From positions 1 through 54,509 of the forward strand of contig CAYIVX010000001.1 in NCBI GenBank assembly GCA_964366925.1: a stretch of DNA of 54,509 bases. Reading direction: 5' to 3'. This DNA comes from Candidatus Woesearchaeota archaeon (GTDB lineage: Archaea > Nanobdellota > Nanobdellia > Pacearchaeales > GW2011-AR1). Positions 6,327 to 53,292 of this stretch are shown one piece after another. The notes under the pieces were generated by a model. The model made no database searches, was not told the DNA's origin, and saw only the letters and a list, made by a program, of their open reading frames with translations. The first letter of the stretch is position 1, and every line of letters starts with the position of its first letter. A program made the translations under genes and the position numbers.

Positions 6327-6686
6327 ATGGAAACTTTAAGTAAACAGTATTTACATAATCAAAAGCAAATTCCTAGCTCTGTTTCTCTTGAACCCCATAG
6401 TTATGAAAGAGAAGTTGAGATTGTAAATACTTATGGGATACATTTTAGATCTGCTGCTTTATTTGTTAAAACTATTGAAAAACATGATCCAGATAATTTA
6501 GATGTGGCTGTTTTTCAAGGTAGAGCTAAGGTTGATGGAAAGAGTGTAATGGGTTTAGTTACTCTTGGAGTTACTCAGGGTCAATATTTAAAAATTCAGG
6601 TTAAGGGTAATGGAACAGCGGAAGCTTGTATGAATGATTTAGTTGCACTTGTAGAATCTGGCTTTAAGGAAGATGATGAAGCTTAA
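6327..6686 (+). CDS. ptsH: HPr-family phosphocarrier protein with ~28-aa N-terminal extension
   Basis: GIHFRSAALF aligns to the His15 region GIHARPA. DGKSVMGLVTLGV aligns to the Ser46 region (K)SIMGVMSLG. The C-terminal LVALVESGF is typical of the fold. Confidence 0.75.
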   Translation: METLSKQYLHNQKQIPSSVSLEPHSYEREVEIVNTYGIHFRSAALFVKTIEKHDPDNLDVAVFQGRAKVDGKSVMGLVTLGVTQGQYLKIQVKGNGTAEACMNDLVALVESGFKEDDEA

Positions 6687-9116: not shown

Positions 9117-9220
9117 TTAGTTCTTAGAATAAGAAGGAGAGGGTTGGGAGTTATTAGGTGAGTTTTAGATTAAGGATTTTATATTTTATTGAACTTCGAG
9201 AAATTAATTTTATTCTTAAC

Positions 9221-10462
9221 TTAAACTGTTAATTTCCCAAGAGAAAGAACAATCTCCTGGCGTTTTTCGGTTAAGTAGTCTGATTCTTCTTCACTAAGAT
9301 TCATTTGTTTTTTTGCAACATCGTCAGTTATTAATGCAAGTATGTTAAAATCATGAAGAGCACGTTTTTTACTTGTATGAATAAGTTCTGCAAGTTTTCC
9401 AGATATACTTTTCTTTTTTAAATTCTTTTGATTTATCATCCAAATTTTTAAAATTCTTTTTGGTGGATTATATTTTGTAAATCTGTCTGGCAGACTTTTA
9501 TTTCCTTTTGCTGCAGAGATTCCTGCTGTAAGAAAGAAGTTCTGATAAGTCATAAAACGCCAGTGTTGCTGTCGGTATATTCTTCCTTTGAAAATATCTG
9601 CTTTGCTCATTGCTTCAAATGCTTTTGCAAGTTCTTCTCCACGATACTCTCCAGGTATATTTTCTTCTAGCCAAAGAGCTATTTGGTCTATTTCCATTTC
9701 AACACTATCATAGGCCTCGATTGTTTTCTTGTGCGTTTTTGTTTTGAATATTTCTCTAAGTGCATTAAATATATCCTGAGATTTTTCTCTTAAATCTATT
9801 TCTTGTTGCATTATTTCAGTTTCTTCTGAATAGATTATTGATTGTAAATCATTTAATGCTGCACGTAAATCTCCTCTTGATTTTGCAGCTATTTCTTTTA
9901 GAGCATTTTCATTAACAATCTTATTTTCTTTTTTTGATATTTCTTTTAGGAAATCTAGTATAGAAAGATAAGGAATTTCTTTAATTGGAACCATTTCACA
10001 TTTGTTTCTAAGTAAAGAGAATTTGTTTTGCCAGATATCGTTGCAGGTTATTATTATCGGAAATTTTGTTCTTTCTATAAGAACTATTAATTCTGGAAGT
10101 CCGCCATAATCTGTTGTAGTAACTCCATCAACTTCATCAACTAGAATTATTTTTCCTTTTGAAAAAAGTGAATGTTGCTGAGTTGATGGTTTTAGAACTT
10201 CATCAAGTTTTGCCCTATTTCTTAAATCGCTTGAGTTTAATTCGAATATTTCATGATTTAATTCTTGTGCGATAACGTGTGCAAGGGTTGTTTTTCCTGT
10301 TCCTGCAGGCCCGTAGAGAAGCATTGCCTTTTTTTGAGATATTCCTTTATTGAAAGAGTTGACGAAAGCTTTTATCTTATCAATGGCTACATCTTGATTT
10401 TTTATTTCAGAAAAATTCTTTGGGCGATATTTTTCAAATAGGGGAGTTGTAGGATTTAACAT
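9221..10462 (-). CDS. rfcL: Replication factor C large subunit
   Basis: Has KYRPKNFSEI, LLYGPAGTGKTTLAHVIAQEL and ILVDEVDG. 413 aa. Co-oriented with rfcS. Confidence 0.85.
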   Translation of the reverse strand: MLNPTTPLFEKYRPKNFSEIKNQDVAIDKIKAFVNSFNKGISQKKAMLLYGPAGTGKTTLAHVIAQELNHEIFELNSSDLRNRAKLDEVLKPSTQQHSLFSKGKIILVDEVDGVTTTDYGGLPELIVLIERTKFPIIITCNDIWQNKFSLLRNKCEMVPIKEIPYLSILDFLKEISKKENKIVNENALKEIAAKSRGDLRAALNDLQSIIYSEETEIMQQEIDLREKSQDIFNALREIFKTKTHKKTIEAYDSVEMEIDQIALWLEENIPGEYRGEELAKAFEAMSKADIFKGRIYRQQHWRFMTYQNFFLTAGISAAKGNKSLPDRFTKYNPPKRILKIWMINQKNLKKKSISGKLAELIHTSKKRALHDFNILALITDDVAKKQMNLSEEESDYLTEKRQEIVLSLGKLTV

Positions 10463-10794
10463 TGTTTTTTTCTCATTTCTTCTTCAATAGACCTAACAAA
10501 AGGTCTTCTTTTTACAAGTTTAATTCTAAAAAACTCTTGAAATCGGTCTCTTAAATAATCTGCTGTTCCCCCATATTCATTATAGTTGAAAGATATATTT
10601 CCACAACAGTCTGCGTGAATTTCTGATTTTTCTTTATTCATTGTAAATAATATTCCCTCTTCTTTGTCTGCCGTAATATCTTCAATTCGTAAATATTTTC
10701 TCATTAATTCTCTTCTAGCAGAATTATCCTGAAGCATTTCTCGTTTTATTCTCGGATATTGTTCTGTACTTGCTTTAGCAAAATAATATGTCAT
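10456..10794 (-). CDS. Hypothetical 112-aa protein wedged between rfcS and rfcL
   Basis: The ORF starts 1 nt after the rfcS stop and overlaps the rfcL start by 7 nt. Contains HADCCGNISFNYNEYGG. No family recognised. Confidence 0.5.
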   Translation of the reverse strand: MTYYFAKASTEQYPRIKREMLQDNSARRELMRKYLRIEDITADKEEGILFTMNKEKSEIHADCCGNISFNYNEYGGTADYLRDRFQEFFRIKLVKRRPFVRSIEEEMRKKQC

Positions 10795-12510: not shown

Positions 12511-12576
12511 GAGTTATTATTGTTTTATTGATTATAAAGATTTTTATATGGACTTAATCCTTATTTTAATATCTTT

Positions 12577-12649
12577 AGTCCCGTAAGACAGTGGTCAAGT
12601 CTTCGAGATTCTGAATCTCGCAACCCCGGTTCGAATCCGGGCGGGACTA
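12577..12649 (+). tRNA. tRNA-Gln (anticodon CTG)
   Basis: Manual fold: acceptor AGTCCCG/CGGGACT (A1:U72), D stem AGAC/GTCT, anticodon stem CGAGA/TCTCG with loop TTCTGAA, T arm CCCGG-TTCGAAT-CCGGG, discriminator A. 73 nt. Confidence 0.85.
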
Positions 12650-12766
12650 TTTTTATTCTAAAAATAGTTAGTATTTTAATCGGATTCGAACGCACAGAAA
12701 ATCATCTATTTTCTGAGATTTAAAAACAAGTATATTTTTAAATAATCCGGGCGGGACTATTTTTAT
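12634..12766 (+). repeat. Perfect 23-bp direct repeat of the tRNA-Gln 3' end flanking an 87-bp insert
   Basis: AATCCGGGCGGGACTATTTTTAT occurs at 12634-12656 and 12744-12766. The insert carries hairpin CAGAAAAT-catct-ATTTTCTG (12695-12715) and an inverted 11-nt T-arm fragment, CGGATTCGAAC. Confidence 0.8.
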
Positions 12767-12783
12767 AAAATAAATTTTTAGAA

Positions 12784-12945
12784 TTATACTCTTATATTAA
12801 AATCTTTGGCATCTCTAATCTTTTTATCGTGTTGATCCATTTTTCCACTTTGAAGACAAGCATAACAAATATGAATTGTGCCATCTTTTTCTGTTATTTG
12901 AAATGTATTTTTACATTTTGGACATAATGCGTTTTCTGTTGTCAT
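12784..12945 (-). CDS. Small Zn-ribbon protein (53 aa, not in ORF track)
   Basis: Own translation: MTTENALCPKCKNTFQITEKDGTIHICYACLQSGKMDQHDKKIRDAKDFNIRV. It has a CxxC...CxxC pair. Confidence 0.45.
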   Translation of the reverse strand: MTTENALCPKCKNTFQITEKDGTIHICYACLQSGKMDQHDKKIRDAKDFNIRV

Positions 12946-13754: not shown

Positions 13755-14036
13755 TCATTTCTCCTTAACAAACCAAAGCAATATTGGCAAAGCTTCGCCC
13801 TCTCTTTTTAATTTATTAAAAGCTTTTTCAAGATCTTTAGGCTCGTAATAAAAAGTCATTTTATATCCAAATGTAGAACTTCTTTCTTTAAGCTGGGGAA
13901 ATTCTTCTATTACTGGTTTTCTTAAACTCATCAAACTCCAAGAATGAGTGCTTTCTATATAAGATAGTTTTCCTTTTATCTCTAGTTTATTTCTTTGTGG
14001 TCTTAATACTTTTTCTTCCATTTTGCGATGTATCAT
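13755..14036 (-). CDS. Hypothetical protein (93 aa) within the integrated element
   Basis: ORF track entry. No recognisable motif. Confidence 0.45.
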   Translation of the reverse strand: MIHRKMEEKVLRPQRNKLEIKGKLSYIESTHSWSLMSLRKPVIEEFPQLKERSSTFGYKMTFYYEPKDLEKAFNKLKREGEALPILLWFVKEK

Positions 14037-14112: not shown

Positions 14113-14261
14113 CCTGAACTGTTCAGGGTTTTTCCCTGAACACCAAACTTATCGAGAGAGAGCAATTTTCAAAAAAGTCGAAAAATCCCTGAACACTTTT
14201 TTCAGCAGAAAAGTATTTAAATAGAAGAACCGAATTAAAATTGAGGTGGTGAGGTGTTCAG
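14113..14261. promoter_or_regulatory. Array of CCTGAACA sites (iteron/operator-like) upstream of the 502-aa gene
   Basis: 15-nt palindrome CCTGAACTGTTCAGG at 14113-14127. CCTGAACA at 14135-14142 and 14188-14195. The inverted form TGTTCAG at 14255-14261. The array ends 29 nt before the ATG at 14290. Confidence 0.5.
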
Positions 14262-14289
14262 CCACCCAGACTGATTCTGAGCGAATATA

Positions 14290-15798
14290 ATGAAGTCAAT
14301 GAAACACGACATAATATCTTTATTTGAAGAGAAAGAAACTGAAATCCCAACATCAGAGATAGTCCTAGCTGTTTCTAAAGAATATGCCCAACTAAAGTCT
14401 CAGAAAAACTTCAATCAAGCCAGACAGATTCACAGGAGAGTTCTTTATCACTTAAACATGCTTGTTCGAGAAAACATACTTAGAGTTGATGGCTATGGAA
14501 AGAACGGACAAAAATCCTATGCCTTAAATGTTTCAGAAGGAGAGCAATTAATAGAGATATCTCCTACAAAATATAAAAAAGAACTTATCGGAAACAGAAT
14601 CCTAATGCCAATAATGCCTATTGAAGGATATGAACAGAAAGGTATTGTTATAAAATCTGGATCTTTAACTGAAAAATTAAACTCTATTGTTGTTTTATGT
14701 GATAAATATTCAGGAGAATTAATCCCCTTAGTTAAGAAACTCCTATCTATTATTGACGATTGTATTTGCCTAGAAAATTTTGAAAGAGAGATAAACAAGA
14801 AAAATGTCATTACTCTTGTTAAAGAATTAGATAAAGAATGTTCATTATATGGCAGAAAAATAAGCTTTTCTGTTAATATCTCTGATGTTGAAAAGAGCAG
14901 AATATTAGAATTAATCCGAGAAACAATTAATCTTAAAAGCATAAACTTTGTTTTTGGGATTAATAAAACAGCATTGTTTGAAAAAGCTGATTTAATCTCT
15001 TCTCTTTTTGATATCTATGCTAAAGAAAAGAAAACTATCTTTCTCAAAAATAGAGATAAGTTTGACTTGCCTTATTTTGTGGGTAATATGGGCGTATATA
15101 GTTTTGATGAAGAAGAATGGAATAATATGCAAGAGAAACCAGCATGCATTGCCTGTTCTCAAAGCACTATTGTCCTAGATGTAAAAAAGTTTTATGATAA
15201 CTATGGATTTAACTTAATTCGATTCAAGGAATTGCTTATGAATATCTCTAAATCTTTTCTGGCTATAAATTCTATACAAAGAGGAAAAGTAAGAGACTAC
15301 TTTAAAGAAAATATCCCTGATTATAATATAGATTTTTTGGAATTATCCCGAAATTATATTAGATTATGGAACTTTGGCTTATTAGAGCCAGAATTAGAAA
15401 CAGAAAAAGTTTTAGATATAATTGATAAAGCTAAACATAAAATCGATGAGTTTGCCCGAACACAGGATAGAATATACAACAGCTGTGGAATGTCAATAAG
15501 ATTCAAGCTTGCTTTAAATCAGGCATCTAAGCAATCTGCAGAGAGTTTAAGCTCAGCAAAATATAAACAGATGCAGATAGACGGATTAAATTCAATAATT
15601 GCAGATTTAAAAGACAGAATAGAAGAAACTTCAAAAGTTTCCTCTTATTTTGATGGAGGCATACATGTTAAGTTTCATCGAATTGGAAAAATAGAAAATT
15701 CTAAAGAATTGCTTAATGAAGTTTCTCTTCTTCTGAATAGGCATAACCTCGCTTTCTTTTCTTATGATATGGAGGGATTAGAATATGGTAGAAATTAG
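14290..15798 (+). CDS. 502-aa protein of unknown function with probable N-terminal winged-helix domain
   Basis: The N-terminal ~85 aa (IPTSEIVLAVSKEY...RRVLYHLNMLVRENILRVDGYGKNGQKSYAL) look wHTH-like. The rest has no P-loop or other motif I recognise. Confidence 0.55.
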   Translation: MKSMKHDIISLFEEKETEIPTSEIVLAVSKEYAQLKSQKNFNQARQIHRRVLYHLNMLVRENILRVDGYGKNGQKSYALNVSEGEQLIEISPTKYKKELIGNRILMPIMPIEGYEQKGIVIKSGSLTEKLNSIVVLCDKYSGELIPLVKKLLSIIDDCICLENFEREINKKNVITLVKELDKECSLYGRKISFSVNISDVEKSRILELIRETINLKSINFVFGINKTALFEKADLISSLFDIYAKEKKTIFLKNRDKFDLPYFVGNMGVYSFDEEEWNNMQEKPACIACSQSTIVLDVKKFYDNYGFNLIRFKELLMNISKSFLAINSIQRGKVRDYFKENIPDYNIDFLELSRNYIRLWNFGLLEPELETEKVLDIIDKAKHKIDEFARTQDRIYNSCGMSIRFKLALNQASKQSAESLSSAKYKQMQIDGLNSIIADLKDRIEETSKVSSYFDGGIHVKFHRIGKIENSKELLNEVSLLLNRHNLAFFSYDMEGLEYGRN

Positions 15799-16435
15799 CG
15801 GAAAAACATCAACAGAAGTCTGGAAGAAAATATTAAAGACTATTATGACTGAAGGAGACTCGTTTAAAGATAGAAGAAAAAGAATCTGCAAAGAAATTTT
15901 AAATGTCTGTGCTACAATTCAGACTACAGATGGAATAATGAAACCTATTGAAACACTTACTAAATTCAATAAATGGATTTATCCTACTCCTGAAAAAATT
16001 AAGAATTCAATTCTCAATAAAGAAGATTCTTCAGAATATTATTATAATTACGGAAAACGGGCTTTTGATCTAGACGGAATAAATCAGATTGATGATTATT
16101 TAATCCCTCTTCTTAAAAAAACTCCGACATCTAAGAGAGGAATCGTTGTTTTTTATTCGCCTGAAAAAGATACTCTTCCCTTAAGAAAAGAAACCCCCGG
16201 TATTGTAATGATTAATTTTATTATTAGAGATAATAAACTTCATTCTACGATGGTCATAAGAAGTAATGATATGTTTCATGGATGGCCTGGAAATGTTGCT
16301 CAAGCATATTTCTTAACAGAGTATGTAGCTGAAGAACTAAATTATCCTATTGGTTCAATAACTACTTTTTCCATTTCAGCCCACATATTTGAAGAGCAAT
16401 TTGAAGATATAAAGAAAGTTATAGGGCGTATATAG
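15785..16435 (+). CDS. Thymidylate synthase (ThyA/dCMP-HMase superfamily) homolog lacking the catalytic Cys
   Basis: [21 protein letters not shown] aligns to E. coli [45 protein letters not shown] aligns to IDQITTVLNQLKNDPDSRRIIV. The P-C-H nucleophile position reads P-G-I. Overlaps the upstream gene by 14 nt. Confidence 0.7.
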   Translation: [216 protein letters not shown]

Positions 16436-16575: not shown

Positions 16576-17733
16576 TTAGATATCCTCCTTTATCTCTAAA
16601 TGTAAGCTATCCGCTACCATATCGAACTTTTTAATATATTTTTCAAGATTTGCCAGCCGTTCTTGCATTATAACCTTCTCTTTCTCAGATTTTTCGAGTC
16701 TTTGCTCAATTTCGGTTTTTGTTAGATCTAGAAGCATATCTTCCTGACTTATCGTATCCTTCATTCCCAATAATTCAGAATAATAATGGATTTTATCGCT
16801 TTTTTTCCAGCCAAATCTATACTTTAAGGCAGATTCAGACTTATATCTTGGAAGCCAGTAACAGCAAGCATTATGTCTAAAATCGTATAAAGTTAATTCA
16901 GAATATTTCTGCCCAGCAGGGCTTTTTCCTTCACCCAGTACTCTCGTAGCTAATCTTTGGAGATACTGATTTGTTCTGCTCGGGCTTATTTTAAATAGAT
17001 AATCTTCAGAGTTTAATTGGAAAACCTTGATATATTCTTTGATTAATTCTGAACTTAACATTAGCTTAATTCTTCTTCCGAAAGTTTTGCTGATTTCATC
17101 TCGTATATTAAGCTCTTTGAAATCATTAAAGAAGTCTGATACTTTTATATTCATTAATTCTGTAGGCGCCCTAATTCCCGTATCAAAAAGAAACATCATT
17201 AAGACTTTATAATTAAATTTAGCATTATCACATAATTGCTTGACCTGCTCTTCAGTTAAATATACCCAATCAGGTTTATCTCTAGAAGTATCAAGATCGA
17301 TAGTTATATCGGGTATATCTTTCCCTTTTTTCCTATTAACTTTTTGATACCAGTGCCAGAAAGCCTTGAATGCTTTAACATAATCCGCAGTTGCTATAAA
17401 CACCTCGCCATTAAGCCTTCTTATCTCTCCATAACGCATTCCTGAGAAAAAGCCCATTAGTTGTTCTTCACTAATATCTATCACACAATCAAGATCGTGC
17501 AATTCCTTAAATTTCTTTGAAAAGAAAATAAGTCTATTCTTTAAAGAATTCAGTCTTGAATGGCTTCTAGACCCTTTAACACTTTCTTGAGCAATATTTA
17601 ACCCCTTTTCCATATCGTTTAGATATTGAAGTATAATTGCAGAATTTTTTTGACTTACACTTGCAATATTCTGCTGATTTTTATCTTTCCATGCAAGATA
17701 CATTTCTTTATGTTTGTACGGGTCTATTTTCAT
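16576..17733 (-). CDS. Tyrosine recombinase / integrase
   Basis: Has FDTGIRAPTEL (box I Arg), LYDFRHNACCYW (H/R box) and SDKIHYYSELLG (candidate catalytic Tyr). 385 aa with a coiled-coil C-terminus. Adjacent to the right att-like repeat. Confidence 0.85.
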   Translation of the reverse strand: MKIDPYKHKEMYLAWKDKNQQNIASVSQKNSAIILQYLNDMEKGLNIAQESVKGSRSHSRLNSLKNRLIFFSKKFKELHDLDCVIDISEEQLMGFFSGMRYGEIRRLNGEVFIATADYVKAFKAFWHWYQKVNRKKGKDIPDITIDLDTSRDKPDWVYLTEEQVKQLCDNAKFNYKVLMMFLFDTGIRAPTELMNIKVSDFFNDFKELNIRDEISKTFGRRIKLMLSSELIKEYIKVFQLNSEDYLFKISPSRTNQYLQRLATRVLGEGKSPAGQKYSELTLYDFRHNACCYWLPRYKSESALKYRFGWKKSDKIHYYSELLGMKDTISQEDMLLDLTKTEIEQRLEKSEKEKVIMQERLANLEKYIKKFDMVADSLHLEIKEDI

Positions 17734-17978: not shown

Positions 17979-18725
17979 TTAAACTTCTATTTTAGAAAAC
18001 AAATAACTTCCAATAATTGTAACTATGAAAGAAATAATTATTAATACAAAAAAGTCAGTTGCTAATCCTAAATGGCTTATTCCTGTTAGGGCTCCTCTTA
18101 TTCCATCAACACCATAGGAAAGAGGATTTAGTTTGATTATGAATCCTATTGCTGCTGGCAGGCTGTCTAAGGGAAATAATGCTCCTGATAAAAAGAAAAC
18201 GGGCATTATAATAAAATTCATAATTAGTTGAAATCCTTGCATATCTTCTAATTTTGAGGCTATTGCAGTTCCTAGTGCAGTGAATAATATTGCAATTAAA
18301 AATATAAAAATCATTGCTATTGGGATCATTGTCCAATTTGTAGGTCTGAATCCTATTAACAAAGATATTAAGAAAACTACAAGTCCTTGAATTGAAGCAA
18401 CAGTCGCTCCGCCCATTGTTCTTCCCAACATTATTCTATATCTTGAAACAGGGGCAACAAGAGTTTCTTTTAGAAATCCGAATTGTCTATCCCAAATGAT
18501 TTCTATACCATTAAACATTGCGGTGAATAATACCGACATGGCGATTATTCCCGGAGCTAGAAAATCAATGTAATTTCCTCCACCTGCTTTTTGAAATATT
18601 GGACCAAATCCAAATCCCAAAGCTACCAAAAATAATAAGGGTTGTGCTAAAGAGCCAACTATTCTAGTTTTAGATCTGAGATATCTTTTTACTTGTCTCA
18701 ACCACATAATATAAATTGCACCCAT
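17979..18725 (-). CDS. ABC-2 type transporter permease
   Basis: 248 aa with six hydrophobic spans. Immediately downstream of the ABC ATPase, with the typical ABC-2 layout. Confidence 0.8.
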   Translation of the reverse strand: MGAIYIMWLRQVKRYLRSKTRIVGSLAQPLLFLVALGFGFGPIFQKAGGGNYIDFLAPGIIAMSVLFTAMFNGIEIIWDRQFGFLKETLVAPVSRYRIMLGRTMGGATVASIQGLVVFLISLLIGFRPTNWTMIPIAMIFIFLIAILFTALGTAIASKLEDMQGFQLIMNFIIMPVFFLSGALFPLDSLPAAIGFIIKLNPLSYGVDGIRGALTGISHLGLATDFFVLIIISFIVTIIGSYLFSKIEV

Positions 18726-25999: not shown

Positions 26000-28900
26000 A
26001 TGGGGTGGAGTTTATTTGACGAAAAAGGGGATATTTTGCCCGCAAAGGTTTTTAGTAATGGAAAAAATCAGGAAGATGTTGTTCTAGAAGTAGTTAATGA
26101 AATAAAAAAAGGTACAAAAATTATTTTTATTCATGGAGTTTGTGGTAGCGGGAAATGTCTTGAAAAGAATACCCGAATATTCTGTAAACCGAAGGGGATT
26201 GACTACTTGGGTTATTATCCAATTTCTCAACTTGTTGGAAAAGAGGGAATTATAGTTTCGCTGGATAAAACGGGTAATATGGTTGAAAGTAAATTTACAA
26301 ATGTCGTAAATAGTGGTAAAAAGAGGCTATATAAAATAAAAACAAGAACGGGTAGAGATTTGCAATGTTCGATTAATCATCCGTTCTTGACAATTACGCG
26401 TAATGGTTTAGAATGGTTACCTTTAGAAAAATTAGATAAAAATTCCTATATTTGTTTGCCAAATAAGACCTCTCTTAAAAATCAAGCCTCTTTGGACAAA
26501 AATAAGATTAAGATTTTAGCTCATTTAATTGCTGAAGGTAAATTAGGCGATAAAAATGGTTCACCTAAATATTATCAAAATCCATTGACTGATTTAGAAG
26601 TAAGGCAAGATTATGAAAATGCATTAAAGAAATTATTTCCCGAAGGACAATTAAAGAGTTCTTCTCCTTGTGAGGTCACTATGGCATTTAATAATAAAGA
26701 TACTAGATTTGGAACTACTAATAAACTTAGACTTTTAATTAGAGAGTTTGGTTTAGACGGCGGGAAGTCGGGGGATAAGTTTGTTCCGCCAATTATTTTT
26801 AATTTAAATGATGCTGATGTTGCCTTGTTTTTAAAAACCTTATTTTCAGGAGATGGAACTATTTATGAAAAAAAGAGTCATGCAAGAGAGAATTCTACGA
26901 TTATTGTAGAATATTGTTCTATTTCAAAAAAACTTATACAAGATGTTTCTATGCTTTTAATGAGATTCGGAATACAACACACGATAACTCCCAAAAAATT
27001 TAGAGAAGATAAAAATTATTCTTGGACTATTCATATCTCCAATCAAAAACAAGTTAGAAAATTTATCAAAAATATTGGTTTTATTGGTAGAAAACAGGTA
27101 TTTGCTGAAAAAGTATTAGGAAGTTTACAAGATCATAAATTTACCAACATAGATAAAGTTCCAAGAGTTATAAGAGAATATTTGAAAGATAGGGGTTATA
27201 CTTATAATGATCTTTATCGATTCTTGAATTATACTGAATTTGAAAAATTTAAGGATGTGGGATTTAAGAAAATTTTGAATAAGAAATTAGTAAGTTGTCC
27301 TTTTGTGTTTAGACAACAGAAAATAGACTTTTTGAGAGAACATATAACAAAAATAAAGGAACATATTAAAGACGCTACTCCTGATTTTATATGCAGTGAA
27401 GATATTTTTTGGGATAGATTAGATAAAATTGAATTTATTGGAGAGGATGAAACTTATGATTTGGAAGTTCCACATTATCATAATTTTATTGCTGATGGAA
27501 TTATTGTGCATAATTCGGCTATCGCTCTTAATATTGCTCGTGAACTTGGTAGGGCTAGTATTGTTGTTCCAATAAAGAATCTTCAGAGACAATATGCTGA
27601 GGATTATACTAATAAAAAATATGTTCTTAAAAAAGATGGCAAAAAATTAAAAATATCCCTGATTACGGGTAGAAGAAATCATATTTGCCCTTACTTGAAA
27701 GACAATCAAAAAGATATTTTATTAAGCAGAATTAGAGAGAAAAATGCAAATCTTACAGATATTTTTTCAGGAGTTAATTCTTCTAATTTTCATCGAAAGA
27801 ATGCAGAGGAGGATGATTCTTGTGATAATTATCTTATCCCCTGTAAAATTGAAATAAAAAGCAAAAATATTTCTACACTTAAGAAATATTATAATGAGAA
27901 TCCTGATAGGAAAGATAATTCGGAACTAGATTTGAAGGTTGCTAAGAGATTTGCGGTTGCTCCTGCTTGTCCTTATTGGAATCCTATTTTGCCTACTGAA
28001 ATGAATGTCAAGAACGATTGGTTAAAAAAAGAATATAAATCTGTTGCAGGGAGTCATACTATCTATGTTAGAAAAGATGGATGCCCCTATTATCGACAGT
28101 TTGAAGCTTATGCGGACTCTGATGTAATTATCTTTAATGGCGATCAATATATACTAGAAACTGCACTTGGAAGAAAGCCTTCTACTGATGTTGAAATAAT
28201 TGATGAGTGTGATGAATTTTTAGATAATTTTGCACTGGAGGGATCAATAAATATTACTAGGTTGAGAAATGAATTGTCCGGAATTATGTGTAGTGATGAT
28301 GCTCAAAGAAAACTTGTTGATGGGCTTAATGAGGGGCTTCTTGAAATTCTTGAAGAGTCTTCTAAGAATATTGATAAAAAAGATAATATTCTTGAAGTTA
28401 ATAAAACTAAAGTTTCTGAATTAATTGCCGCACTTGTTAAAAGTGATGTTTTTGAAATTATGAGTGATGAAAGTTATTTGGAGCATTGTGTTGAAGAAGC
28501 AAGAAAATTTTTTGATGTTATGGATGAAAGTTTTGTTAATTATTATAAAGATAAAAATCGAGGAGATATCTTTGTTAAACTTGTTACTATTAACTTAGAT
28601 AAGCTTCTTTCTTCTCTTATTGAAAAGAATAAGGCTTTTGTTTTTATGTCTGGAACTCTCCATAGCAAAAGAGTTTTAGAAGAAATTTTTGGATTGAAGG
28701 ATTTTAAGATTATTGATGCAGAAACTTTTAAGCTTGGAACTATTAAAAAACTTAGAACAGGTTTAGAGCAGGATTTAAAATTTGATAATTTTGAAAAGAA
28801 GGTAGTTAGTCGTGAAAAATATTTATTGGCCTTGGATAAGTGTGTTGAGATTGCTAAAATTCCTATTCTTGTTCATGTTAGTGCATTTAATGATTTGCCT

Positions 28901-29293
28901 TCGACTAATGAAATTGAGCAATTTAGACTAAAGAATCTTATCAGTTTTTCAGAATTAGTTGAACAGCAAAATTCAGATCGTGAAGGAAAGATGGTAAATG
29001 ATTTTAAGGCAGGAAAAATAAAAATTCTTTTTACTACAAGATGTAATAGGGGTATTGATTTTCCTTTTGAGACTTGCAATAGCGTTGTAATAACTAAATT
29101 TCCCTATCCTAATACCCAGTCTTTATTTTGGAAAATTTTAAAACAAAATAAGCCCGATATTTTCTGGGATTTTTATAAAGATAAAGCTTATAGGGAACTT
29201 TTGCAAAAAGTTTATCGAAGTGTTCGGGCGGTTAATGATTCTGTTTTCTTGCTTTCCCCAGATATACGTGTTATGAATAGTAGTGTTGTGTAG
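26000..29293 (+). CDS. XPD/Rad3/DinG-like superfamily-2 helicase interrupted by an intein
   Basis: The extein P-loop is HGVCGSGK|...|SAIAL. Cys-rich insert: HICPY, SCDNYLIPC, ACPYWNP, GCPYYRQ. DExD-like IIDECDEF. GIDFPFETCNSVVITKFPYP and QKVYRSVRAVNDSVFLLSPDIR resemble XPD motifs V/VI. Confidence 0.75.
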   Translation: MGWSLFDEKGDILPAKVFSNGKNQEDVVLEVVNEIKKGTKIIFIHGVCGSGKCLEKNTRIFCKPKGIDYLGYYPISQLVGKEGIIVSLDKTGNMVESKFTNVVNSGKKRLYKIKTRTGRDLQCSINHPFLTITRNGLEWLPLEKLDKNSYICLPNKTSLKNQASLDKNKIKILAHLIAEGKLGDKNGSPKYYQNPLTDLEVRQDYENALKKLFPEGQLKSSSPCEVTMAFNNKDTRFGTTNKLRLLIREFGLDGGKSGDKFVPPIIFNLNDADVALFLKTLFSGDGTIYEKKSHARENSTIIVEYCSISKKLIQDVSMLLMRFGIQHTITPKKFREDKNYSWTIHISNQKQVRKFIKNIGFIGRKQVFAEKVLGSLQDHKFTNIDKVPRVIREYLKDRGYTYNDLYRFLNYTEFEKFKDVGFKKILNKKLVSCPFVFRQQKIDFLREHITKIKEHIKDATPDFICSEDIFWDRLDKIEFIGEDETYDLEVPHYHNFIADGIIVHNSAIALNIARELGRASIVVPIKNLQRQYAEDYTNKKYVLKKDGKKLKISLITGRRNHICPYLKDNQKDILLSRIREKNANLTDIFSGVNSSNFHRKNAEEDDSCDNYLIPCKIEIKSKNISTLKKYYNENPDRKDNSELDLKVAKRFAVAPACPYWNPILPTEMNVKNDWLKKEYKSVAGSHTIYVRKDGCPYYRQFEAYADSDVIIFNGDQYILETALGRKPSTDVEIIDECDEFLDNFALEGSINITRLRNELSGIMCSDDAQRKLVDGLNEGLLEILEESSKNIDKKDNILEVNKTKVSELIAALVKSDVFEIMSDESYLEHCVEEARKFFDVMDESFVNYYKDKNRGDIFVKLVTINLDKLLSSLIEKNKAFVFMSGTLHSKRVLEEIFGLKDFKIIDAETFKLGTIKKLRTGLEQDLKFDNFEKKVVSREKYLLALDKCVEIAKIPILVHVSAFNDLPSTNEIEQFRLKNLISFSELVEQQNSDREGKMVNDFKAGKIKILFTTRCNRGIDFPFETCNSVVITKFPYPNTQSLFWKILKQNKPDIFWDFYKDKAYRELLQKVYRSVRAVNDSVFLLSPDIRVMNSSVV
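26156..27514 (+). mobile_element. Intein (453 aa) with LAGLIDADG homing-endonuclease domain inserted in the helicase Walker A motif
   Basis: Starts with Cys (CLEKNT). Block B is CSINHPFL. LAGLIDADG motifs are ILAHLIAEGKLGD and LFLKTLFSGDGTIY. The C-terminus reads YDLEVPHYHNFIADGIIVHN, followed by +1 Ser. Confidence 0.85.
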
Positions 29294-29528: not shown

Positions 29529-32219
29529 ATGAAAAAAGGTGTTGGTGTAGTTTTAGTATTATTTTTAAGTGTAATTTTATTGACGGGATTTGTTTCTGCT
29601 AGTTGGTTTAGTGATTTTTGGGGAAAAATTAATGGACAAGGAAATGCAGTTACTGGAAATATAGTAGCAAATCCTGGATATGATTGTGAAGTTAATTGGG
29701 CTGGGACTATTTATAGGGGAACATATAACCTTGTTGGATTATCTAATGGCGATGGCAGATTTGTTTGTTATAAGGCTAAATTTTATGAATGTGGTTGGGA
29801 ATTAGACGATGTTAGATTAGCAGTTAAATCTACAGATGGACAAGTTGTTGGAAATTGGAAATGTAATCTTGGATCAAAAAGTTGGTCTTTAGCAACAAAA
29901 AATTGTGATGAGGTTTTATCTGGTACAAAATATACTGGAGTGCATAATGTGGTTGGATTATCTAATGGCGATAGTAGATTTATATGCTTAGACAACAAAT
30001 TTTATGAATGTGGCTGGGAATTAAATGACCCTGCTTTTGCAGTTAAATCTACTAATTCGCAGGTTGTTGGAGATTGGAAATGCGATTTGAATGCTGGGGG
30101 CTGGACTGCAGTTTCACAACAACAAACTTGTAATTCTTTTACTTATTCTAATTGGAGTAGTTGTAGTTCTTCTGGAACTCAAACAAGAACAGTCTTAAGT
30201 TCTTCTCCCTCTGGATGTACTGGGGGCTCTTCGGTTCTTTCACAGAATTGTACTTATGTTTCGCCAGTTGTTACGTGCACTGATTCTGACAGTGGAATAG
30301 ACTATTATGTTAAGGGACTTACAAAACTAGGGACAGGATCAGTATCCATGGATGCGTATGATCATTGTTGGAATGAATCAAACAACGGGCCTTCTTCAAC
30401 AGGTAATGATCTCATTGAGCTTTATTGTTCCAATTCCAGTTCAGGTCACACTATAGTTTCTACACAGCAGTATACTTGTCCAAATGGATGTTCTGACGGA
30501 GCTTGTATAATTACTGCTCCTGTGGTAAATAATACTTGTATAGACTCCGACGGAGGATTGAATTATAATTTGAAAGGAGATATTAATTATTTTTATAATG
30601 TTCATACTAGCAATCCAGATTTTTATGGAACTCATATTGCGGGGGATCAATGTTTGGGTGATGGTTCTCTTTTAGAATATTCTTGTGATTATTATAATTC
30701 TTCTGAATTGAATCCTTCTAAACAATATATCTGTCCAAATGGATGTAAAGATGGCGCTTGTATTGGTGAAGCTCCTTGTACCTCAAAATTTGTTTGTGAA
30801 ATTACACCTTCAATATGTCCTGTTGAGGGTAAACAAACAAAAACATGCAAGGATATTCAATGCAATGCTTCTAGTTATAGTGAAGAAATAATTTGTAATC
30901 CTGGACAATGTTCTGGTTGTGAACTTGATGCGAAATGTTTACCTTATGGATTTAGAACATTAGTAAACGAAAAACCAAATTATTGTGATGTTGATGGTAA
31001 ATTTCAATTACAGAAAACAACTGTTGGTGGAGAATGGAGTGCTTGTCAGAATAATTATGAATGTGAAAGTAATATTTGTTCTTCTGGTGAATGTATTGAA
31101 TTAAAGGACGTTATTGGTCAAGCAAATGCGGTAAAGGGATTTTTTATAAAGCTTATCTGTAAATTATCTAATCTCTTTAATGCAGATGGTTATGCTCAAT
31201 GTATAAATGATTATCTTGGTGGTAATATTACTGAGCCCGTAGTTAAACCTACAATCGTATGTGGCAATACTGGGACTTCTGCTACAGATAAAATTAGTTT
31301 GGATACTTCCGCAAGAAGACTTTATCTTAATGATCCTATAAATGCTGCTAGAACATCCATATCTAGTGCGGAAATGCCAAACGTACTTGTTGATGGAAAA
31401 ATTACTTCTTTAACAGGCGTGACTTATGCTTATACTCAGGGTTTGTTATTAGGAAATAGTAGTCATATACTTTTTGGAACAAGTGGTGGAGATTTAGTTG
31501 ATCCCGCAAATTATATTAACGTTGGAACTGATGCAACGAATCCATTATATAGTTATGTTTTGATGTTAAATAAAAATCTTGATGTTTCGGATGCAACAAA
31601 TATACAAGGACAAAAAATGACTATCCAGGGTAAGGAATATGTTATTGGGTCCGGTTCAAGTGTTACTAATGGAATTTATCTTTACGAAAGTCTTTGTGGA
31701 TCAACAGTTTTGAATAAAGGAGAAACAAGAACATTTAATGTTAAGGGGATTGTTTATACAATTGAAGCTGTTGCAATTACAGATGGAAATACTGCTAAGA
31801 TAACGGTTAATGGAATTTCAAAAACAGTTACTAGAAGTTCGAGTTATTCTTTTGGTAATATTGATATTTATGTGAAGGATATTACTTATGAAGCTTATGC
31901 TGGTGGGGTTCAAACAATTGAATTACTTGTTGGAACAAATACTCTATTTTTAAAATCGGGTTATACCGTTAAAAAAGATGCAGATTTAATATCCGTTCCT
32001 GGAACAATGGTAACTCTACAAACTAACGGTGGTCTTTTGAGTGGACTTAAAATTGCAGTTTCTGCACAAAAATCTCAGTTTGATAGTATTGCTGTTGGTG
32101 AATCTTTTATAGATCCGGTATTTGGTGGATTAAAGGTACAATTGGTAGCTGTTAGTCCTTCATCTCCAATATATTTTGATGTTTCTGTATCTACAAATCC
32201 TAATCCGATAGTCGTCTAG
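29529..32219 (+). CDS. Large secreted Cys-rich surface protein with internal domain duplications
   Basis: 896 aa with a signal peptide. A 73-aa tandem repeat occupies aa 53-124 and 126-195 (GLSNGD(G/S)RF(V/I)C...KFYECGWEL). A second duplicated module is C(T/I)DSD(S/G)G...CPNGC(S/K)DGACI. The C-terminal ~330 aa are Cys-poor and beta-rich. Confidence 0.7.
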   Translation: MKKGVGVVLVLFLSVILLTGFVSASWFSDFWGKINGQGNAVTGNIVANPGYDCEVNWAGTIYRGTYNLVGLSNGDGRFVCYKAKFYECGWELDDVRLAVKSTDGQVVGNWKCNLGSKSWSLATKNCDEVLSGTKYTGVHNVVGLSNGDSRFICLDNKFYECGWELNDPAFAVKSTNSQVVGDWKCDLNAGGWTAVSQQQTCNSFTYSNWSSCSSSGTQTRTVLSSSPSGCTGGSSVLSQNCTYVSPVVTCTDSDSGIDYYVKGLTKLGTGSVSMDAYDHCWNESNNGPSSTGNDLIELYCSNSSSGHTIVSTQQYTCPNGCSDGACIITAPVVNNTCIDSDGGLNYNLKGDINYFYNVHTSNPDFYGTHIAGDQCLGDGSLLEYSCDYYNSSELNPSKQYICPNGCKDGACIGEAPCTSKFVCEITPSICPVEGKQTKTCKDIQCNASSYSEEIICNPGQCSGCELDAKCLPYGFRTLVNEKPNYCDVDGKFQLQKTTVGGEWSACQNNYECESNICSSGECIELKDVIGQANAVKGFFIKLICKLSNLFNADGYAQCINDYLGGNITEPVVKPTIVCGNTGTSATDKISLDTSARRLYLNDPINAARTSISSAEMPNVLVDGKITSLTGVTYAYTQGLLLGNSSHILFGTSGGDLVDPANYINVGTDATNPLYSYVLMLNKNLDVSDATNIQGQKMTIQGKEYVIGSGSSVTNGIYLYESLCGSTVLNKGETRTFNVKGIVYTIEAVAITDGNTAKITVNGISKTVTRSSSYSFGNIDIYVKDITYEAYAGGVQTIELLVGTNTLFLKSGYTVKKDADLISVPGTMVTLQTNGGLLSGLKIAVSAQKSQFDSIAVGESFIDPVFGGLKVQLVAVSPSSPIYFDVSVSTNPNPIVV

Positions 32220-53165: not shown

Positions 53166-53292
53166 GAGCCCTTAGCTCAGCCCGGTTAGAGCACTGCTCT
53201 TATAAGATTAAATTTCGCTAGAAATTTATTTTTCCTTCCTTCGGGAAGACTAAGAAAGGCAGGGGTCCCACGTTCAAATCGTGGAGGGCTCA
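53166..53292 (+). tRNA. tRNA-Ile (anticodon TAT) with a ~52-nt canonical-position intron (53205-53256)
   Basis: Manual fold: GAGCCCT/AGGGCTC acceptor, D GCTC/GAGC, anticodon stem CTGCT/GGCAG (one G-U pair) with loop CTTATA|intron|A, T arm CCACG-TTCAAAT-CGTGG, discriminator A. Intron ends are +/-2 nt. Confidence 0.7.

Follow-up and report, generated by a model that had tools for sequence, protein, structure and literature searches.

Ribonucleotide reductase (RNR) and thymidylate synthase (TS; ThyA) carry out the two committed steps that divide DNA precursors from RNA precursors, and both are textbook examples of cysteine-dependent catalysis. A 54,509-nucleotide (nt) stretch of DNA from a Candidatus Woesearchaeota archaeon (assembly GCA_964366925.1, contig CAYIVX010000001.1, positions 1 to 54,509 of the forward strand; this whole stretch is referred to as the window) contains two coupled genes, the second of which encodes a ThyA-fold protein that lacks the nucleophilic cysteine. 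The question raised by this locus is what such a protein does, and what is encoded by the gene of 502 amino acids (aa) that overlaps it. It was found that the pair is conserved across DPANN archaea, that the first protein is predicted to join a DNA-binding winged helix to an RNR-type barrel, and that a conserved array of predicted operator sites precedes the operon. We tentatively read the two proteins as a nucleotide-sensing, self-regulating DNA-binding complex. The pair is laid out as follows.

Positions 14290 to 15798, forward strand: gene 1, 502 aa, with a predicted N-terminal winged helix (residues ~1–100) and an RNR/glycyl-radical-enzyme-type 10-stranded alpha/beta barrel (residues ~120–502)
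Positions 15785 to 16435, forward strand: gene 2, 216 aa, a short archaeal ThyA-fold protein without the nucleophile
Positions 15785 to 15798, forward strand: overlap of the gene 1 stop codon (TAG) and the gene 2 start codon (ATG), 14 nt, ATGGTAGAAATTAG, translational coupling

Both open reading frames (ORFs) and their overlap were confirmed at these positions, and an identical 14-nt overlap was present in two close relatives (loci L081 and L082). The initial annotation, made from the letters of the window and their translations, had assigned the 216-aa protein to the ThyA fold, and this proved right. The protein matched the Pfam family Thymidylat_synt (PF00303) with an E-value of 7.3e-19 and 68.4 bits (cutoff 24.3), the match stopping at profile position 224 of 266, and the motifs quoted at that time, KRGIVVF included, were found in it. 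Its best NCBIfam match was TIGR03283, the short methanogen-type ThyA, over profile positions 4–200 of 201, with a score of 123.9 bits that does not reach the equivalog cutoff of 174.55 bits. The AlphaFold2 (AF2) model had a pLDDT (predicted local distance difference test score) of 91.6 and a pTM (predicted template modelling score) of 0.90. When this model was searched with Foldseek, the query-based template modelling score (TMq) was 0.81 for MilA, 0.78 for AfhB and ~0.7 for ThyA, with a probability of 1.00 to ThyA and MilA, and the flavin-dependent structures 9iqu and 9iqc were among the best matches. The protein carries the label 'thymidylate synthase' in both JGI and NCBI annotation.

The residue that replaces the nucleophile is encoded here.

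Positions 16199 to 16201, forward strand: codon GGT for Gly139, which aligns to Cys146 of E. coli ThyA

Two earlier remarks, that glycine occupies the nucleophile slot and that the only two cysteines lie near the N-terminus, both held: HMMER and MAFFT alignments put Gly139 on E. coli Cys146, and cysteine occurs in the protein only at positions 35 and 42. In HMMER alignments against solved structures its TPGIVM segment fell on TPCVYE of B. subtilis ThyA and on PPCHTL of L. casei TS, and no profile alignment gave a cysteine at the nucleophile position. A database search yielded 98 clusters of the ThyA-like family at 42–100% identity, the named ones being from Pacearchaeota. In these clusters the nucleophile column was occupied by G (84), S (5), A (5) or C (4). 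Serine or alanine was found already in sequences 81–82% identical to the window protein, and the exceptions were scattered among close relatives. In the 78 paired genome loci described below, the column held G, S or A in 76, C in one and R in one. Judged from the alignments, such a pattern fits a constraint on residue size, and not a catalytic position. Chance is ruled out as the explanation of the missing cysteine, because glycine or another small residue is conserved in a family of at least 98 clusters and in 80 genome loci.

As an outgroup we used two sequences reached by a broad-alignment search, one of them, P0148, being a 'putative thymidylate synthase' of the methanogen Ca. Methanolliviera. 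With the family profile they scored ~135 bits, where members of the DPANN clade reached 235 bits or more, and they keep the nucleophile (EEIPCMILVDF). The concern that the short archaeal ThyA proteins might work without the cysteine as a group is thus answered by the methanogen-type sister group, which retains it. The cysteine-less state is accordingly derived, the clade descending from a cysteine-bearing short methanogen-type ThyA.

The loss of the nucleophile is accompanied by retention of the pocket for deoxyuridine monophosphate (dUMP). Conserved in the DPANN clade are R159, S160 and D162 (R166, S167 and D169 of ThyA), N170 (N177), H200 (H207), K117-R118 (R126'/R127') and Y89 (Y94); the equivalent of R21 is variable, with R33 as a possible substitute. 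The folate-binding parts, namely the W80/W83 region and the C-terminal ~50 residues, are absent from the 216-aa protein, the W80/W83 segment being an alignment gap, and these elements are missing from the methanogen-type outgroup too. One insertion distinguishes the clade.

Positions 15974 to 15985, forward strand: insert K-W64-x-Y66-P67 of gene 2, DPANN-specific, absent from the methanogen-type outgroup and from E. coli ThyA

In the broad alignment Y66 and P67 never vary and W64 is kept in at least 90% of sequences; the insert is a candidate surface for contact with the partner. In one Woesearchaeota genome a second TS-like ORF, very divergent and 325 aa long, was seen 1.8 kb downstream of the pair (L043 11801–12778, forward strand). 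It was rejected as a canonical ThyA, its PF00303 match having an E-value of only 1.9e-4 and no PDB sequence match being found.

The two proteins were also searched for a cysteine that could have taken over the role of the lost one. Two candidates were considered.

Positions 15887 to 15895, forward strand: Cys35-Lys-Glu37 motif of gene 2, the cysteine being clade-typical and not universal
Positions 15484 to 15489, forward strand: Cys399-Gly400 of the S-C-G-M-P loop of gene 1, Cys399 being the sole near-invariant cysteine of that gene

Cys35 is present in 94 of the 98 close clusters; deeper branches have S, A, F, T or I in its place, and the outgroup has Thr. Glu37 is conserved in the DPANN clade and common to the outgroup. 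S, A or V stands in place of Cys399 in 10 of 219 sequences of the partner family (95% conservation); Gly400 is 99% and Cys289 only 53% conserved. Among the 78 paired loci, L019, L033, L050 and L061 lack the partner's Cys399 and still have Gly139, and L061 has no cysteine at position 35, at 139 or at 399 of the partner. No covariation between these three positions, and no compensatory pattern, was detected in the 78 pairs. These comparisons give no support to an obligatory cysteine, whether in cis or in trans.

The 502-aa partner had been described as a winged helix-turn-helix (wHTH) protein of unknown function. The wHTH part of that description stands, and the 'unknown' part gives way to a predicted RNR/glycyl-radical-enzyme barrel. 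Sequence searches with the protein (Pfam, NCBIfam, PDB by phmmer and by profile, PADLOC, PHROGs) gave nothing significant, and membership in the RNR, NRDD or PFL models of Pfam was not found. An AF2 model built on a 36-sequence alignment had a pLDDT of 86.7 and a pTM of 0.75. When this model was compared with the PDB by Foldseek, the nine best matches were all RNR alpha subunits, with E-values <1e-3 and a probability of 1.00: the class III NrdD of T. maritima (4com, 4con and 4u3e; E 4.4e-8 for 4com_B), class Id (6dqw and 6dqx) and the class Ib NrdE (6cgm). Pyruvate formate-lyase (PFL; 1cm5 and 2pfl) came after the RNRs, with a probability of 0.89–0.99. In BFVD, an independent viral library, each named best match was an RNR large subunit of class I or II, and the matches included the betaherpesvirus R1-like proteins (HHV-6 R1-like, B45 and PR45), which we take to be catalytically dead RNR homologs. 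By its model, then, the 502-aa protein is a winged helix fused to an RNR/glycyl-radical-enzyme barrel. The parts of gene 1 referred to below are these.

Positions 14290 to 14590, forward strand: winged-helix domain, with the recognition helix at ~aa 41–60 (H48, R49, L52, L58) and the wing at G73/K75
Positions 14434 to 14436, forward strand: codon of wHTH residue R49
Positions 14512 to 14514, forward strand: codon of wHTH residue K75
Positions 15073 to 15099, forward strand: putative finger-loop hairpin of the barrel, aa 262–270, P261-x3-G265-x2-G268-x-Y270

The winged helix that the initial annotation had read from the sequence is borne out by weak Pfam matches to HTH_20 and HTH_24 in members of the family, and by Foldseek matches of residues ~1–119 to the Fur-type wHTH regulators 2xig and 5nbc (probability 0.90–0.99). 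H48, R49, L52, L58, G73 and K75 are 90–98% conserved across the 219 sequences. The domain stands in the place of the ATP-cone, which is absent from the protein. In the barrel, DSSP on the AF2 model put the hairpin strands (262–264 and 269–271) between the fifth and sixth barrel strands, i.e. between the half-barrels. Its G265, G268 and Y270 are conserved in 100%, 99% and 98% of sequences, respectively, and all tips read G-[RKN]-[AS]-G, with no conserved cysteine. The glycyl-radical motif R-V-x-G-Y was found in 0 of the 219 family members; N-x-C-x-E was found in only 2 of them, at non-homologous positions, as chance matches. The residues that are near-invariant in the barrel are D157, N254, P261, G265, G268, Y270, D297, R358, N361 and C399-G400.

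The partner family is restricted to DPANN archaea; a word search recovered 37 clusters of it, and an exhaustive HMMER search 232 representatives at 50% identity. Among the 150 matches listed of the exhaustive profile search only the family itself was seen (proteins of ~480–548 aa, or shorter partials); there was no bridge to RNRs, and no natural fusion of the partner with the ThyA-like protein.

To see how regularly the two genes go together, genomes were scanned, one per species, and 80 ThyA-like loci were obtained, spread over Woese-, Pace-, Nano- and Aenigmatarchaeota. The RNR-like gene lay directly upstream on the same strand in 78 of the 80. One of the two unpaired loci is cut by the contig end, which leaves 78 of 79 evaluable loci with adjacent genes; the co-occurrence on which the earlier pairing claim hung is thereby established. 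The other unpaired locus, L028, is truly without the partner: there (9211–10651) the intact ThyA-like gene is preceded by an MscS-like channel gene and ~730 bp of non-coding DNA. In the 78 pairs the genes overlap in 33 cases (20 of them by exactly 4 nt) and are separated by 0–10 nt in 37.

The earlier account of the locus was right about the gene pair and overlooked a conserved operator upstream of the operon. In the window the predicted elements are as follows.

Positions 14113 to 14127 (no strand): distal operator, the perfect inverted repeat CCTGAAC-t-GTTCAGG, conserved in L081
Positions 14135 to 14141, forward strand: operator half-site CCTGAAC(A), conserved in L081 and L082
Positions 14188 to 14194, forward strand: proximal half-site CCTGAAC(A), which precedes the TATA-like box by ~21 bp and is kept in L081 and L082
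Positions 14216 to 14223, forward strand: TATA-like box TTTAAATA, assigned by consensus only
Positions 14255 to 14261, reverse strand: downstream half-site CTGAACA, ~32 bp past the TATA-like box, close to where transcription is expected to start, and kept in L081 and L082

CCTGAAC occurs four times within 82 bp upstream of gene 1, the inverted repeat included, and 12 copies of the word were counted in the whole window as against 2.9 expected. The array is kept in L081 and L082 despite different flanking genes. When 75 loci were examined, the 260 nt that precede gene 1 contained on average 2.21 copies of CTGAA[AC][AC], compared with 0.27 in the background (8-fold), and three or more sites were present in 29 of the 75, compared with 0.4% of random windows. 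The element is almost private to the operon, 40 of the 62 site clusters in 1.15 Mb sitting at its promoter. Clade-wide, it consists of a distal palindrome, GTTTCAG-N7-CTGAAAC (14 loci), and a proximal component of one or two CTGAAACA copies 8–12 bp upstream of the TATA box; most loci have a TTTATATA/TTTAAATA box after the proximal sites.

The divergent gene upstream of the operon belongs to one of three unrelated families, depending on the lineage, and the operator is present with each; it is equally strong at loci without an adjacent Lrp/AsnC gene. The element thus persists with three unrelated upstream genes, which leaves the winged helix of the operon itself as the one DNA-binding candidate present throughout. 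We infer that this winged helix binds the predicted operator. Away from the operon promoter, most site clusters fall within coding sequence or upstream of unrelated genes (ribosomal proteins and one HIT-domain gene), without forming a coherent set. The HIT-domain gene, of a nucleotide hydrolase family, is in L061, with three CTGAAAC-type sites upstream of it (18071–18195); this is the sole non-operon cluster beside a nucleotide-related gene. It was also observed that the leader GAGGTG-TTCAG-CCACCCAGACTGATTCTGAG is strongly conserved (window 14248–14281, L081 ~2711–2745, L082 ~6461–6497). A hairpin in the leader, past the TATA box and before the start codon, was considered and rejected, RNAalifold giving two short hairpins with no covarying pair.

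The genes around the pair were then compared. Recurrent neighbours are a divergent Lrp/AsnC regulator (47 loci), ArgRS, RLI, GyrB, uracil-DNA glycosylase (UDG) and ribosomal proteins. In 8 loci (L068 4817–5404 and 7 others) the pair is followed immediately by a UDG-superfamily gene on the other strand, which may be a thematic link to uracil or dUMP. No flavin reductase, folate/pterin enzyme or radical generator is conserved in the neighbourhood of the pair, nor is an activase, NrdB or B12 gene found among its conserved neighbours. In the window itself, one flank of the pair carries the small and large subunits of replication factor C, a pterin dehydratase and two tRNAs, and the opposite flank an integrase and an ABC transporter; the remainder is ordinary archaeal chromosome. 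The neighbouring features with positions are given here.

Positions 13755 to 14036, reverse strand: divergent 93-aa ORF, adjoining the operon only in the subclade of the window
Positions 16576 to 17733, reverse strand: tyrosine recombinase (Phage_integrase PF00589, PHROG integrase), 140 nt downstream of the pair
L001 3023–3631, L003 7444–8115 and L005 7187–7807, reverse strand: divergent ORFs of ~200–236 aa
L006 2763–3404, L008 215–925 and L012 2764–3411, reverse strand: further divergent ORFs of ~200–236 aa

The 93-aa ORF has counterparts of 38–41% identity at the equivalent place in L081 and L082 and had no significant Pfam, PADLOC or PHROG match; it probably accompanies the operon as an accessory gene and does not belong to its core. 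The family of ~200–236 aa occupies, in several Pacearchaeota and Woesearchaeota genomes, the divergent upstream place that Lrp/AsnC has in other lineages; its L012 member, the one that was scanned, had no Pfam match. The integrase of the window has a 69%-identical homolog in L082, on the opposite side of the pair. It is absent from all 80 species-level loci and linked to the pair in 2 of 83 loci overall. No att repeats were found around tRNA-Glu and the integrase, only weak AT-rich repeats. Among 2.9 million viral contigs there was no member of the clade, just distant TS homologs at 24–31% identity, and PADLOC gave no match for either protein of the pair.

Several further observations concern the flanks. 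In L081 (5010–8605) and L083 (5181–8100) these look like mobile-element or defence DNA (TraC/VirB4-like ATPase, N6/N4 DNA methyltransferase, Csa3/CARF-like protein, MCM). The 3' end of tRNA-Gln (12576–12650) is partly duplicated 110 nt downstream in the window (12634–12681 and 12744–12791); AATCCGGGCGGGACTATTTTTAT is identical in the two copies, which agree in 81% over 48 nt, and the duplicate looks like an att-type scar of past integration or excision. Farther away on the forward strand are an XPD/Rad3-type helicase (Helicase_C_2) of 1097 aa that is split by a LAGLIDADG homing-endonuclease intein (26000–29293), an 896-aa ORF with no Pfam match at E <1e-5 (29529–32219), and a 127-nt tRNA found by Rfam (50 bits) and not reported by ARAGORN (53166–53292), which is probably an intron-containing archaeal tRNA.

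Known systems resemble the pair in part. Closest to the ThyA-like protein is the short methanogen-type ThyA (TIGR03283), which is homologous over the full length, has ~210 aa, is likewise without a folate-binding C-terminal extension, and shares the motifs K-E-I-L-N, Y-G-x-R, R-S-x-D, P-x-N and A-H. It has the cysteine, whereas the DPANN clade has Gly, Ala or Ser and, as a rule, Cys35, together with the K-W-x-Y-P insert; the two lie ~100 bits apart in score, and pairing with an RNR-like gene is particular to the DPANN clade. ThyA, the deoxycytidylate hydroxymethylase of T4, the cytidylate hydroxymethylase MilA and AfhB of phage HY126 (9iqu) have the same fold and the same Arg/Ser/Asp/Asn/His pocket. 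TS homologs, flavin-dependent ones included, keep Cys146 and change the specificity residues (N177D, D169N, L143D/E), as described for 5-hydroxycytosine (PMC13326640, 2026). The DPANN clade keeps N177 and D169 but is without the cysteine, and therefore falls outside every characterised branch of the superfamily.

The 502-aa protein shares with RNR alpha subunits and PFL the ten-stranded barrel and central hairpin, with a Foldseek probability of 1.00 to RNR alpha in two libraries. It differs from RNR alpha in having no detectable sequence similarity, no N-x-C-x-E, no glycyl-radical motif, no conserved cysteine at the hairpin tip and no ATP-cone, and unlike RNR systems, which have an NrdB, NrdG or B12 partner, the DPANN pair has none nearby. 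The betaherpesvirus R1 homologs of the UL45/M45 type are catalytically dead RNR large subunits that were repurposed for host interaction and cell-death signalling. The trait common to them and the 502-aa protein would be an RNR alpha fold without catalytic residues in a non-reductase role, and by analogy these proteins provide a precedent for repurposed alpha subunits; unlike the DPANN pair they are viral, sequence-unrelated, and without a DNA-binding domain or a TS-like partner. Proteins that combine a metabolite-binding module with a nucleic-acid-binding domain to control genes of their own pathway are also known (NrdR, BirA, PutA, NadR and PyrR). Their likeness to the pair is a functional analogy only, the common trait being autoregulation through an operator at the own promoter: NrdR is bacterial and combines a zinc ribbon with an ATP-cone, whereas the putative DPANN sensor has RNR-barrel and TS folds on two polypeptides.

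Taken together, we favour, with somewhat less than even confidence, an autoregulated, nucleotide-sensing DNA-binding complex made from two exapted enzymes of deoxynucleotide (dNTP) synthesis, the functional side of which is conjecture throughout. It builds on the folds, the loss of catalytic residues, the kept binding residues, the coupling, the clade-wide conservation, and the existence and specificity of the operator. The translationally coupled operon would be vertically inherited and autoregulated in DPANN archaea. The RNR-like and ThyA-like subunits would form one complex and bind (deoxy)nucleotides without turnover, both being presumed properties of the pair; the ThyA-like subunit would bind a ligand of the dUMP/dTMP type (dTMP, deoxythymidine monophosphate), and the barrel a nucleotide in its former catalytic or allosteric site. 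The state of ligand binding would in turn govern attachment of the winged helix to the GTTTCAG-N7-CTGAAAC palindrome and to the CTGAAACA sites flanking the operon's own TATA box, and the winged helix probably would act on further promoters as well. The initial annotation had left a choice between a pseudoenzyme or nucleotide-binding module and a new chemistry; with the loss of the nucleophile real and clade-wide, the former is the one preferred here. Several points weigh against it. No operator target beyond the own promoter was recognised in ~20 kb per genome, and a regulator with its own promoter as its only target would be pointless. Tyr89 (Y94) and Glu37 (a possible analogue of E58) are conserved, although they are of the catalytic type in real ThyA. 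The tight set of polar near-invariant barrel residues (D157, N254, Y270, D297, R358, N361 and C399) would equally suit an active site. The hairpin tip is presumed to be the position of the radical cysteine of RNR and PFL, an equivalence that comes from predicted topology and not from residue superposition; when the 219-sequence family was compared by hhalign with seven NrdD sequences (E. coli NrdD and six divergent phage NrdD), the probability was 0.4% and no usable alignment resulted, which bears on the assignment of the finger loop.

Several of these points lend some weight to a self-regulating, or 'trigger', enzyme, that is, an active complex of the RNR-fold and TS-fold proteins that carries out cysteine-independent chemistry on a pyrimidine nucleotide, with the wHTH serving for feedback only. 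Enzymes with DNA-binding feedback on their own operon are known in BirA and PutA, and ThyX shows that methylation of dUMP needs no enzyme nucleophile. A sole detected operator target at the own promoter is typical of autoregulated enzymes; catalytic-type TS residues are kept (Y89, E37, D162 and N170), the barrel combines compact near-invariant polar residues with the C399-G400 loop, and the pair is widespread in DPANN archaea in housekeeping neighbourhoods. The TS superfamily, moreover, has a precedent for a switch of cofactor from folate to flavin (PMC13326640). Yet each characterised enzyme of the superfamily retains Cys146, the flavin-dependent 5-hydroxy-dCMP synthases included; the folate-binding C-terminus and the W80/W83 region are gone, a radical generator, flavin reductase or folate/pterin enzyme is not conserved nearby, each candidate cysteine is dispensable in some lineages, and no cofactor-binding motif was detected. 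On balance such an enzyme, the leading alternative, is unlikely, while still deserving serious consideration. More doubtful is its specific form in which the pair would perform a cysteine-free C5 chemistry on dUMP or a new nucleotide transformation, as a DPANN route to thymidylate or deoxynucleotides and a third solution after ThyA and ThyX. A genuine thymidylate synthase whose nucleophile had moved to Cys35 or, in trans, to Cys399 of the partner, in the space opened by Gly139, we consider improbable. The high frequency of both cysteines, the small residues at 139, as if something must fit there, the strict gene pairing and the database label all speak for it, but Cys35 is replaced in the deeper branches, Cys399 gives way to S, A or V in 10 partners, positions 35, 139 and 399 do not compensate for one another, L061 lacks all three cysteines, and the TIGR03283 score stays under the equivalog cutoff.

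It had been proposed as well that the pair lies inside a mobile element and, by analogy with phage enzymes, is tied to DNA hypermodification or the manipulation of nucleotide pools. A tyrosine recombinase 140 nt downstream and tRNA genes upstream agree with such a cargo, as do the two closest relatives with their mobile-like flanks (TraC/VirB4-like ATPase, DNA methyltransferase, MCM and DUF2779) and the integrase of L082. Neither part of the proposal was upheld: the integrase is confined to the window and one relative, the flanks are housekeeping genes in the window and in the 80 species-level loci, and no att repeat, viral-contig member or PADLOC match was found. In addition, TS homologs of hypermodification keep Cys146 and alter N177 or D169 (PMC13326640), and the DPANN clade does the opposite. 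We regard this origin as very improbable. Least credible of all is that both genes are decaying remnants of RNR and ThyA without a present function. Catalytic residues are indeed gone from both proteins and DPANN genomes are reductive, but intact, full-length ORFs persist in more than 200 representatives down to 28–42% identity and share many invariant residues, conservation extends to the gene overlap and the promoter element, and both AF2 models are confident. The conservation of ORFs, overlap and promoter, together with the confident models, therefore points to strong purifying selection.

In the literature we found no account of a cysteine-less archaeal ThyA clade, of a wHTH-RNR-fold protein, or of the pairing of the two, and the search on thymidylate metabolism in DPANN archaea returned nothing relevant. 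Each part comes from a known superfamily, and enzyme-derived regulators are known; the combination is unprecedented. A whole archaeal radiation retains coupled homologs of RNR and TS without the catalytic cysteines, and with a DNA-binding domain added. The label 'thymidylate synthase' may wrongly credit DPANN genomes with dTMP synthesis in metabolic reconstructions. If the pair is an enzyme, it would carry out, by a new chemistry, a reaction that is central to how DNA arose and is maintained. If it serves instead to sense nucleotides, archaea would have in it an equivalent of NrdR made from the enzymes themselves, and it would offer a handle on how DPANN archaea, which are small-celled and host-dependent, monitor the nucleotides that they scavenge.

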